DNA of 43,297 nt, taken from positions 1 through 43,297 of the forward strand of contig MIAO01000044.1 in assembly GCA_001829155.1 (NCBI GenBank). The letters are read 5' to 3'. Position numbers and translations under genes: made by a program. Below the pieces are notes generated by a model. It did not search any database. It was given only the letters and a program-made list of their open reading frames with translations, and had not been told where the DNA came from. The stretch is from Spirochaetes bacterium GWB1_36_13. Its GTDB lineage: Bacteria; Spirochaetota; GWB1-36-13. Numbering within the stretch: position 1 is the stretch's first letter; each line of letters opens with the position of its first letter. Of the stretch, positions 29,670 to 42,943 are shown piece by piece.

Positions 29670-29987
29670 ATGAAAAAACTTTTTATTCTGACATTACCCT
29701 TATTTTTCACTCTCCTGCTGACTGGGCTTTTGAAAGGAGAATCAGAACAGATGAAAGAACAGGTCAACCATGGAGATTATTATCTGAAAAACTCAACAAA
29801 AAACACGCTCATCATAGAAGCCGTTACCCTGGACGGGGATAAAGCTGTATTGCTTCAAAACAAGATCAAACCCGGAAAAAAAGCCCATATCTACACCTTT
29901 TCTGAATGGACTCGAATCACCTTATTTCAAGACTATTCCAGCGACTTTCAAATCCAAACCCCTAACCCCTTATCCTTAAGTCTTTAA
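29670..29987 (+). CDS. Small exported protein of unknown function (105 aa).
   Basis: RBS AGGAGG at 29657 followed by ATG at 29670. Signal peptide MKKLFILTLPLFFTLLLTGLL. No recognizable domain. Confidence 0.4.
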   Translation: MKKLFILTLPLFFTLLLTGLLKGESEQMKEQVNHGDYYLKNSTKNTLIIEAVTLDGDKAVLLQNKIKPGKKAHIYTFSEWTRITLFQDYSSDFQIQTPNPLSLSL

Positions 29988-30074
29988 GGACAAGGGGGAG
30001 TCCTCCGTGATTTCATCCCTGAAATCAAGTCGGACGGGGAAACCCTGCCTCGTGCAGGGGTAAAGAAATAAAAA
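29976..30074. repeat. About 100-bp element (copy A): TTAAGTCTTTAAGGACAAGGGGGAGTCCTCCGTGATTTCATCCCTGAAATCAAGTCGGACG + hairpin CCCTGCCTCGTGCAGGG + GTAAAGAAATAAAAA.
   Basis: An inverted copy lies at 42845..42943: 61 nt identical, then a hairpin carrying a compensatory stem change (CTCTGCGTCGTGCAGAG). Confidence 0.6.
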
Positions 30075-30091
30075 TCATAAACGAAATTTTG

Positions 30092-30303
30092 ATAATCAGG
30101 CTGTCGATTATTGTTTAAATTAACTCGGACACCGAGCGGAGTCGAGGTGTCACTTCGGCTGTGCTCAGTGACCGTACTGCTCTGATTAATAACCAAAAAA
30201 AGCTATGAAAGATTGCATAAGAAAAGACAACTACCTTTTCTAATAAACTTACAAATATCAATGATAACAAGGTATAGTTTTCAATAATCGACAGCCTGAG
30301 TAT
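30092..30303. repeat. Mini-element bounded by a 21/22-bp inverted repeat (ATAATCAGGCTGTCGATTATTG / CAATAATCGACAGCCTGAGTAT). It encloses a ~170-bp segment with a GC-rich structured core.
   Basis: The inverted repeats are read directly at 30092..30113 and 30282..30303. The core contains GACACCgagcggagtcgaGGTGTC and further GC-rich stems. No credible ORF. Confidence 0.45.
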
Positions 30304-30397
30304 ATGTTTTTAGTTTGTGGGCAAAAAAATTTCAGGTTTTTTCATTTGAAAAATGACTTTTTCAGGGACGACTAAAATAGATTTTCAAAGTGTTTTT

Positions 30398-41656: not shown

Positions 41657-41883
41657 TGTATTCTCCTTTTATTTTTTAAGTTACTCGAGTAACCTTTTTA
41701 GTTTACTTAGTAAGTTTATAAAAAAAATATAACACAATATTTTTTCCCCGTCAAATTTTTTTTTGGAATCATCACAAATTCATGATAAATTTTACACATG
41801 GTTTTCCTTTTCACAGCGTAGATAAAATAGAATCTTTCCCGCCTTAAAATAAATCGAATTTAAAAATCAAGAGGAGTGTTAAA

Positions 41884-42789
41884 TTGGAGAAACAAGAACT
41901 CATTCAGGAAATCATCCGGCTGAAAAAAGAAAAAAACGCGGTTATTCTTGCCCACAATTACCAGACTCCCGAAATTCAGGAAATAGCTGATTTTGTAGGA
42001 GATTCGTTAGAACTTGCAAAAATATCTCATACCATTCCTAATCAAACGATTGTTTTTTGCGGCGTTTTTTTTATGGCTGAAACTGCTCACATTCTCGCCC
42101 CGGAAAAAAAAGTCCTTCTTCCCTCGCTGGATGCAGGCTGCCCCATGGCCGATATGGCGGATCCTCATGAAATCCTTGAGCTGAAAAAAGAACATCCCGA
42201 TGCCGCAGTGGTCACCTATGTCAATTCGACTGCTGAGATTAAAGCAATATCCGATATCTGCTGCACTTCATCCAATGCTTTTCAAGTCTTGAATTCAGTC
42301 AAAGAGAAAAAAATTATTTTTATCCCCGATAGAAATTTGGGTAGAAACCTTGCCCGATTTATTTCGAAAGAATTTTTTTATATTGTAGGATACTGCCCGG
42401 TTCATGAAGCAGTGAAAAAAGAAGAAATTCTGAAACTCAAAGAAATTATGCCCGATGCTGAAATCCTGATGCACCCGGAGGTCAATCCTGAGGTTGCTGT
42501 TTTTGCCGACAAGCTTTTAAGCACTGGAAATATCCTGAAATATGCAATGAATGTATCCAATAAAAACCTGATTATCGCCACCGAAGCAGGACTTCTCTAC
42601 CAGCTTCATAAAAAAGCGCCTCAAAACCGCTACTTCAACATCGGACGCGACATGATCTGCCCGAATATGAAGAAAACCAACCTTCAAAATGTTTATGAAG
42701 TCTTGAAAAACGAAAGCAATCAGGTAGTCCTCGACCCTGAAATCAGGGAAAAAGCAAAAAAATCCATTGTCAGGATGCTGGAAATTTAA
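41884..42789 (+). CDS. nadA: Quinolinate synthase A.
   Basis: 301 aa. ILAHNYQ, FCGV.FMAET, VTYVNSTAEIKA.SDICCTSSNA are canonical NadA motifs. TTG start with GAGGAG 7 nt upstream. Confidence 0.9.
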   Translation: MEKQELIQEIIRLKKEKNAVILAHNYQTPEIQEIADFVGDSLELAKISHTIPNQTIVFCGVFFMAETAHILAPEKKVLLPSLDAGCPMADMADPHEILELKKEHPDAAVVTYVNSTAEIKAISDICCTSSNAFQVLNSVKEKKIIFIPDRNLGRNLARFISKEFFYIVGYCPVHEAVKKEEILKLKEIMPDAEILMHPEVNPEVAVFADKLLSTGNILKYAMNVSNKNLIIATEAGLLYQLHKKAPQNRYFNIGRDMICPNMKKTNLQNVYEVLKNESNQVVLDPEIREKAKKSIVRMLEI

Positions 42790-42844
42790 TTTTTATATAA
42801 AGTCTAAAAACTAACATTAAAATAACCTCTATTTTTTTTCTTCG

Positions 42845-42943
42845 TTTTTATTTCTTCAACTCTGCACGACGCAGAGTTTCCTCGTCCGACTTGATTTCAG
42901 GGATGAAATCACGGAGGACTCCCCCTTGTCCTTAAAGACTTAA
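42845..42943. repeat. Inverted copy (copy B) of the ~100-bp element at 29976..30074. Its hairpin plus UUUCC could also act as a weak nadA terminator.
   Basis: The reverse complement of this region matches copy A. The hairpin CTCTGCACGACGCAGAG carries the compensatory variant. Confidence 0.6.

Follow-up and report, generated by a model that had tools for sequence, protein, structure and literature searches.

The locus and its inverted repeat

The 43,297-nt stretch of DNA analyzed here (the window) comes from Spirochaetes bacterium GWB1_36_13 (positions 1 to 43,297 of contig MIAO01000044.1, assembly GCA_001829155.1) and carries two copies of a 99-nt repeat that are reverse complements of one another, copy A at 29976-30074 on the forward strand and copy B at 42845-42943 on the reverse strand. 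Between them is a 12.9-kb block whose gene content had been read correctly in the original prediction, that is, an Ig-like protein (Big_13/Big_7), two flagellar rod proteins, STAS, TetR and MMPL proteins, and NadA; DUF1302 and LolA-like genes are also among the genes of the block. Our analyses indicate that the 99-nt repeat is probably the internal, hairpin-rich core of a family of ~633-669 bp non-coding miniature inverted-repeat transposable elements (MITEs) in an uncultured groundwater lineage of Spirochaetia.

A repeat search reported copies A and B as 94% complementary and 12,770 nt apart, and comparison of the two base by base showed that 93 of the 99 positions agree. The initial 61 nt are identical and all six differences fall in the final 38 nt, among them the C-G to U-A change that had been described in the last hairpin (CCCTGC/GCAGGG in copy A, CTCTGC/GCAGAG in copy B). 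Within the window, a 22-mer from the core occurs at copies A and B alone (shuffles expect 0). A filter-free search of the whole window with a covariance model of the core likewise returned only copy A (151.5 bits) and copy B (91.6 bits), the weaker matches (≤22 bits) being other hairpin repeats.

Copy A continues to resemble its relatives well beyond the 99 nt. Contigs fetched for comparison are labelled L001-L019 (19 loci, some of them the window's own locus in other assemblies); L001 and L002 are two contigs of metagenome Ga0209518. Homology to other family members reaches ~75 nt (probably ~210 nt) upstream and ~300 nt downstream of copy A; in L001 and L002 it extends ~75 nt further upstream (window 29900-30072), and in L001 it resumes ~250 nt downstream of the copy A stretch (window 30313-30376). 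The 99 nt are thus merely the overlap between a long copy and a fragment.

A non-coding MITE family

That the long copy is a MITE follows from two complete family members, which bear terminal inverted repeats (TIRs) of 17-19 bp (GTCRACCCTGAAAAAGT) and a perfect 6-bp target site duplication (TSD). The first (L001 4815-5483) is 669 bp in length, starts GTCAACCCTAAAAAGTCA and ends ...TTTTTCAGGGTCGAC; its TIRs match at 16 of 19 positions with one gap and TAAATA is present on both flanks. The second (L017 4952-5584) is 633 bp in length, its termini (GTCAACCCTGAAAAAGT versus GTCGACCCTGAAAAAGT) match at 16 of 17 positions and TAAGTA is present on both flanks. As their positions are fixed by the TIRs, chance is a very unlikely source of two perfect 6-bp duplications. 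The target sites are AT-rich and TAARTA-like, and the complete copies are at unrelated loci. The repeats had originally been proposed to be insertion sequence (IS) or MITE ends. Their membership of a MITE-type family is borne out by the TIRs, the TSDs and the further copies at at least eight loci, but copies A and B are internal segments and not ends.

From left to right, the element consists of TIR-L (GTCAACCCTGAAAAAGT...), a variable left arm, a module T1-5′, the core with its hairpins P1, P2 and P3, an A-rich tail, a structured spacer (S) of ~220 nt, T2 and TIR-R. T2 corresponds to T1-5′ plus P1 in inverted and diverged form (alignment score 45, compared with 25 ± 4 in shuffles). The modules are recombined from one locus to another. 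L017 has a 92-nt module (module M) in place of the left arm, L002a has just the arm end and T1, and in L019, which has the same right flank as L015 and L002b, the stop codon of a gene is directly followed by S and T2 with no T1, a state that represents either a partial deletion or a modular insertion.

All open reading frames (ORFs) in the element are ≤70 aa and none is conserved between copies. Two of them were considered as coding and rejected: an 18-codon ORF in the core (window 30007-30063, GTG at 30007, MISSLKSSRTGKPCLVQG) that has a strong Shine-Dalgarno sequence, and whose C-terminus changes or frameshifts among copies, and an 11-28 codon ORF in the spacer (L001 5251-5337) that has a good Shine-Dalgarno sequence, is not conserved, and is truncated, altered or without an ATG in five of seven copies. 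The spacer also contains convergent terminator-like hairpins, one per strand and ~100 nt apart (L001 5226-5243 on the minus strand and ~5300-5335 on the plus strand, with equivalents in L015 and L017), whose stems are conserved while their loops vary between copies. These hairpins might stop read-through from either side. A type I toxin-antitoxin reading of them was rejected, as there is no conserved hydrophobic peptide.

Relatives of the element were found at at least eight loci on metagenome contigs and contigs of metagenome-assembled genomes (MAGs) of the same lineage ("Spirochaetia bacterium", uncultured, groundwater), so the additional copies for which a search had been suggested do exist. 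An exact scan of metagenome contigs with the core 22-mer produced two further loci, L001 and L002. Protein databases were searched with translated frames of the element, since gene callers at times read ORFs across it, and the proteins recovered (P0002-P0007) led to six more loci (L014-L019). A chimeric peptide query built from six element frames was insensitive, its one match (P0002) having E = 1.5, and led on to further copies. The window locus itself was recovered, 99.8-100% identical, from JGI metagenome 3300025030, MAG GCA_003527435.1, and ENA and Logan groundwater assemblies. Two or three of the further loci are other contigs of the same MAG, which has at least four contigs with a copy, indicating that one genome holds several copies. 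An initial reading of L001 and L014 as orthologous loci with a 77%-identical flank was discarded, as the "flank" proved to be the element's own left arm and TIR.

Outside this lineage the family left no trace in the collections that we searched. The exact core 22-mer had no match in 185,579 species genomes or in viral contigs, a degenerate pre-P1/P1 pattern had none in the same species genomes, BLASTN searches at the "distant" setting of plasmid and phage collections returned no match to the element, and a full-text search for the core sequence gave nothing relevant. The family is new, with no relatives in Rfam or in the plasmid, phage and species-genome collections, and its kind, the MITE, is well known; it has the defining features of a MITE except for a known parent IS.

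The family has practical consequences for annotation. Assemblies break inside the element at L004, L011-L013, L016 and L018, and in MAG GCA_003527435.1 the 12.6-kb block is a contig of its own that ends in copy B and beside module M (L004, DPXE01000052.1; L011, DPXE01000145.1). The element thereby fragments short-read assemblies of this Spirochaetia lineage and also yields spurious "hypothetical proteins". These are DHW82_09600 (P0001, window 29670-29987), P0002 (L014 59-493) and P0003-P0007 (L015-L019), which are translations across the MITE and orphans; all seven are best treated as spurious ORFs. The 105-aa DHW82_09600 [Spirochaetia bacterium] is encoded on the plus strand with its stop codon in the P1 loop, is about two-thirds element sequence and had no homologue among 5.8 billion proteins, and it is probably spurious or chimeric.

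The window copy that contains copy A is itself rearranged. It spans ~29763-30372 on the plus strand, with an uncertain left boundary that could be as late as ~29900. Its left TIR-like end, GTCAACC[ATGGAGATTATTAT]CTGAAAAACTCAAC, is recognizable only if a 14-bp insertion (ATGGAGATTATTAT) is allowed (gapped match, z ~3.3), its right TIR (...TTTTTCAGGGACGAC) is present with one mismatch, and the flanking hexamers (GAACAG versus TAAAAT) are not a target duplication. The normal spacer is replaced by module M (30096-30187, plus strand), which consists of an inverted pair of hairpins (30127-30149 on the plus strand and 30151-30173 on the minus strand) resembling repetitive extragenic palindromes (REPs) arranged as in a REP doublet forming hairpins (REPIN). 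In L017, module M is ~97% identical and is on the opposite side of the core. The start of module M recurs as a partial copy in inverted orientation (30282-30319, minus strand; the right arm of inverted repeat I4) with an 18-nt perfect match to 30096-30113, and a remnant of T2 (30313-30372, minus strand) includes TIR-R, has lost the T2 hairpin and is 94% identical to L001 5425-5487. The window spacer was also considered as an inverted normal spacer, and this was rejected because it has no significant similarity to one in either orientation and its sequence is that of module M.

Comparison with known elements places the family among bacterial MITEs such as Correia/NEMIS of Neisseria, Nezha of cyanobacteria and RUP of Streptococcus pneumoniae. 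Like these, it is non-coding, has TIRs and short TSDs, and folds strongly, and it shares with them many intergenic and gene-end copies, truncated and nested copies, assembly breaks and spurious ORFs. It differs in being at the large end of their size range (633-669 bp), in its 6-bp TSD at TAARTA-like sites and in having no known parent IS. A further difference is that the best conserved part is an internal three-hairpin core together with a subterminal hairpin, and one uncultured Spirochaetia lineage is the only source from which the family is known to date. The BOX elements of Streptococcus pneumoniae (boxA-boxB-boxC) are similar in their modular build, as the modules left arm, M, T1, S and T2 are combined differently at different loci (e.g., L002a has T1 alone, L019 has S and T2 but no T1, and M can be located on one or the other side of T1). 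They are also alike in having outer modules that are partly inverted copies of each other and a stable predicted RNA structure. However, there is no sequence similarity, and BOX elements are without clear TIR/TSD footprints, whereas two copies of the present family have both.

The hairpin core and its conservation

The conserved core (window 29950-30072, plus strand) comprises a C-rich stretch before P1, then P1 (29966-29997), P2 (30000-30035) and P3 (30041-30061). P2 has a perfect 8-bp inner stem and a UCCC loop. A 48-nt segment (29989-30036) is invariant in the first four copies, and later copies vary only in or beside the P2 loop. Between independent copies, identity is 92-100% across the core (the pre-P1 stretch, P1, P2 and P3) and 100% in the T2 hairpin, compared with ~90% in spacer S, 76-84% in the TIRs, 74-77% in the tail and 37-75% in the arms. 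This pattern of identity suggests that selection acts on P2-P3 and on the two hairpin regions that are subterminal and inverted relative to each other. The predicted fold is strong, with z = -4.3 for copy A and -7.3 for the whole element.

The pairing in P3 appears to have been maintained by compensatory changes. Selection on the hairpin structure had originally been proposed from the single C-G to U-A change between copies A and B. Taken by itself, that change is weak evidence: when six substitutions were simulated on the predicted pairs, a pair-preserving double change arose in 3% of trials with all 99 positions eligible and in 8% with only the variable 38 nt eligible, and the one co-varying pair in the first six family members was equaled in 99 of 500 column shuffles. 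The proposal gains support from the conservation of the core and from a second, independent compensatory change in P3, U-A to C-G in L016, with G-U and U-G intermediates in L002a. With eight sequences in a model-fitted alignment, one shuffle in 500 reached the level of covariation observed over the whole structure. T2 retains the P1 stem with a different apex, and for P1 versus the T2 hairpin the corresponding figure was 46 in 500.

The strand on which the core would fold can be assigned only tentatively. The one-sided changes are mostly G-U wobbles that pair on the copy-A strand alone (L002a in P1 and P3, L017 in P2). However, a constant A.C mismatch in P1 would pair as G-U on the opposite strand, and the minimum free energy is slightly better there. 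Selection on a folded single strand is plausible.

Several points weigh against the reading of the family as a simple MITE. Target duplications are present in two copies only, the window copy has none and its left end comes from a gapped match. No clean empty site was recovered among the loci compared, and L019, which is without T1, could be a deletion. No transposase gene was present beside these TIRs in the 19 loci fetched, nor was an autonomous element with matching TIRs found. L014 and L017 have a common right flank and different left arms, which could mean that one of the two is chimeric as assembled. The alignment behind the covariation statistic was fitted to the model, and of the three pairs with double changes in it, one is an artefact that arose where non-homologous sequence 5′ of copy B was aligned. 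A classical DDE-type MITE would be expected to be most conserved at its termini; here it is the internal core that is best conserved, which hints at an additional function.

We favor a MITE mobilized in trans by a transposase that would bind the TIRs and cut with a 6-bp stagger. As subterminal recognition sites, the core and the T2 hairpin would act in cis for mobilization, a role that we prefer to that of a passenger RNA and that would explain both their inverted arrangement and their conservation. No other parts of the element are as conserved as these two, and P3 kept its pairing through two independent double substitutions, so they most likely act as folded single strands or as subterminal protein-binding sites. 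The element containing copy A would have been rearranged after its insertion, when the spacer gave way to the REPIN-like module and the T2 hairpin was lost, leaving a copy with no target duplication.

A second explanation for the conservation, and one that we consider unlikely, is that the core (P1-P2-P3, ~100-125 nt) is a small structured RNA gene family, or a passenger RNA module of the MITE, read from the copy-A strand. Its C-rich loops (UCCC and CCUCC) would then pair with Shine-Dalgarno-like targets or bind a protein, and dispersal by a mobile element would be secondary. This explanation accommodates the conservation of the core above that of the TIRs, the two independent compensatory changes in P3, the strong fold (z of -4.3 to -7.3) and the fact that most one-sided changes are wobbles that pair on the copy-A strand alone. 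In addition, a weak promoter-like sequence (TTGAAA/TTCAAA-18-TATCCT) overlaps P1 and there are terminator-like hairpins on both strands of the spacer. However, consensus scans found no promoter or terminator common to all copies. The only promoter-like site they returned was the weak TTGAAA-18-TATCCT in L001, the window copies have no terminator-like site, copy B and L002a are without the spacer terminators, and the promoter-like hexamers are weak, with the -35 lost in L015. The strand call is not clean either, given the A.C mismatch and the free energy that favor the opposite strand, and P1 and P2, being almost invariant, provide no covariation signal.

Searches for known RNAs also counted against an RNA gene. 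None of the 4227 models of Rfam 15 matched the window at its gathering threshold. Permissive Rfam scans of copy A and four other copies gave only sub-threshold scores (sraL, 20 bits; Moco, 19.5 bits) that were not reproduced across copies, a tRNA/tmRNA scan found none, and nothing related to the core is present in the 185,579 species genomes. The small RNA alternative of the original prediction drew no support from gene signatures, as the copies have no consistent promoter or terminator in common and belong to no Rfam family. Two more specific candidates were rejected: the T-arm-like strings of the 5′ module vary among copies, and an integron attC site was dismissed upon inspection of the alignments because the CCCTAAC/GTTAAAG pair matches at only five of seven positions, the interior has three separate hairpins and there is no cassette array.

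A related and similarly doubtful idea is that the MITE carries as its cargo a functional module of structured RNA or single-stranded DNA, the core being under purifying selection for an activity of its own and not for transposition. Features that can be cited for it are the nearly invariant 48-nt stretch, the C-rich UCC loops, the anti-Shine-Dalgarno-like CCUCC and P3 with its two independent compensatory changes. If this were true, transposition would seed a regulatory RNA or a protein-recognized hairpin at many loci. In a variant of this idea, the abundant PD-(D/E)XK (Rpn/YhgA-like) "transposase" genes of this genome may act on the core hairpins. What is unusual about the family is that an internal hairpin core, and not the termini, is most conserved and has kept its pairing via compensatory changes. 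Should the core have an independent function, as an RNA or as a hairpin bound by protein, the family would illustrate how a MITE can spread a regulatory module; otherwise, it is an ordinary new MITE family.

Hairpins that appear to be the selected unit are also known from REP/REPIN sequences, which are associated with RAYT (IS200/IS605-like Y1) transposases, and from palindrome-associated transposable elements (PATEs). The MITE family resembles these in its conserved imperfect hairpins and in the tolerance of G-T wobble on one strand, and its module M is REPIN-like. In contrast to them, it has TIRs and target duplications, neither of which results from transposition of the IS200/IS605 type, and its conserved hairpins in T1 and T2 are on opposite strands. 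Mobile-element RNAs in Rfam (the HEARO/IscB omega-RNA, IS605-orfB RNAs and group II intron domains) are likewise multi-hairpin RNA-like sequences that travel with a mobile element, but the present family has no Rfam match and no adjacent TnpB, IscB or reverse transcriptase gene.

Copy B, the 12.9-kb block and other repeats

Copy B (42845-42943, minus strand) is an orphan internal fragment that begins at a TTAA inside P1 and continues through P2, P3 and the A-rich tail; it is without TIRs, arms, spacer and T2. Its start at the TTAA in P1 is precisely where a second, TTAA-flanked small element sits. This mini-element (42940-43114, no strand assigned) is between copy B and an IS21-family istA fragment, and consists of a 167-bp AT-rich segment (42944-43110) with 11-bp TIRs (CCCAACTTGCA/TGCAAGTTGGG) and TTAA on both sides. 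Copy B had been described as abutting the IS21 fragment, and this is not so, as the 167-bp segment separates them. The istA fragment (43115-43297, minus strand; ...PEHKGKVESGVKYAKNNFLP) is truncated at TTAA and runs off the end of the contig; the istA reading frame (...KGKVESGVKYAKNNFLP) ends at the TTAA of the mini-element and is frameshifted upstream in L005. Later insertions and deletions beside a decayed IS21 have reduced copy B to a dead internal fragment.

As copies A and B are both internal to the element, one being in a rearranged ~610-bp copy and the other an orphan fragment, the 12.9-kb block is not a composite transposon, and the opposite orientation of the copies is an accident of insertion. 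The original prediction had raised the possibility that they mediate inversion of the block. In its strongest form, the copies would be recombination sites for programmed or frequent inversion of 29976-42943, switching the Ig-like protein, flgBC, MMPL and nadA relative to their surroundings. The copies are inverted and perfectly identical over 61 bp, the perfect 8-bp palindrome of P2, with its 4-nt spacer, superficially resembles a pair of invertase half-sites, and a PD-(D/E)XK (YhgA/Rpn-like) gene is 400 bp from copy A. Despite this, we regard such a switch as highly improbable, because the block had a single orientation in five independent assemblies from different samples. At junction B, the window, L003, L005 and L006 all have the same arrangement (nadA, copy B, mini-element, istA), and junction A is likewise identical in the window, L003 and L010, alongside four similar places; assemblies L004 and L011-L013 break within the repeat and are uninformative on orientation. 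Furthermore, no serine or tyrosine recombinase gene was found in or beside the block, single occurrences of the sequence within a MITE are known from many other loci, and copy B is a truncated fragment. RecA-mediated or other homologous recombination across the 61 identical bp is possible, and no inversion was seen in the assemblies.

The repeat is almost certainly not the terminal non-coding end of the adjacent IS21-family element, with copy A as a solo end: the istA fragment is ~170 bp from copy B in the same orientation, and IS21 ends carry multiple transposase-binding repeats, but istA is frameshifted and cut mid-gene at TTAA, a separate TIR-bounded segment parts it from copy B, the 30 nt upstream of the istA start (L005) aligned to the sequence beyond the repeat with a score no different from the shuffle mean, the TIRs begin GTC, unlike the TG...CA ends of IS21, and around the full-length members in L001, L002 and L017 no IS21 genes are present for several kb.

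The mini-element itself varies within the population. In L006 (400-472), which is from another sample, its region contains an additional 58-bp unit that ends ...TGCAACTTGGGTTAA. The mini-element also carries an outward promoter-like TTTATA-18-TAAAAT that points at copy B.

Besides the MITE and the mini-element, the window contains several other small repeats, showing a groundwater spirochaete genome to be densely colonized by nested, modular elements (MITE, TTAA mini-element, REP/REPIN-like repeats and C/G hairpins). A REP-like hairpin (GGACAYYGAGCRRAGYCGARRTG) occurs four times, with 0 expected, at 591-613, 2665-2687, 30127-30149 (plus strand) and 30151-30173 (minus strand), and its stem shows covariation (ATT/AAT versus ACC/GGT). 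Two of these copies come straight after PDDEXK_2 "transposase" genes, and the other two are the inverted REPIN-like pair in module M. Three genes of the PD-(D/E)XK nuclease family, annotated as transposases, are present in the 43 kb (55-576, 1727-2641 and 28632-29552). Two are PDDEXK_2 genes, one of them partial, that share a 300-nt repeat at 93% identity, and the third is a Transposase_31/YhgA-like gene located ~200 bp from the left end of the window MITE and ~400 bp from copy A. These "transposase" genes may be linked to the hairpin repeats.

Two more families of C/G-rich hairpin repeats were observed, one with CCCCCTCTCTTAG.AAGAGAGGGGG then AGAATGATTTTTT, and the other with a hairpin between CTCACCCCTGACCC and GAGGGGATGAG. 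Their copies are at 633-683, 1465-1574, 2705-2755, 3309-3364, 6228-6283, 16607-16662 and 20095-20150. Both families have the "ACCCC-N3-CCC + hairpin + GGGG" architecture that is also found in P1 of the MITE core, and they were weak matches to its covariance model. Lastly, a perfect 33-nt inverted repeat (AATTTTTGCAATTTAAAATCATTTCAGTATATA) is present at 1057-1089 and 23484-23516, with its two copies 22.4 kb apart and near gene starts.

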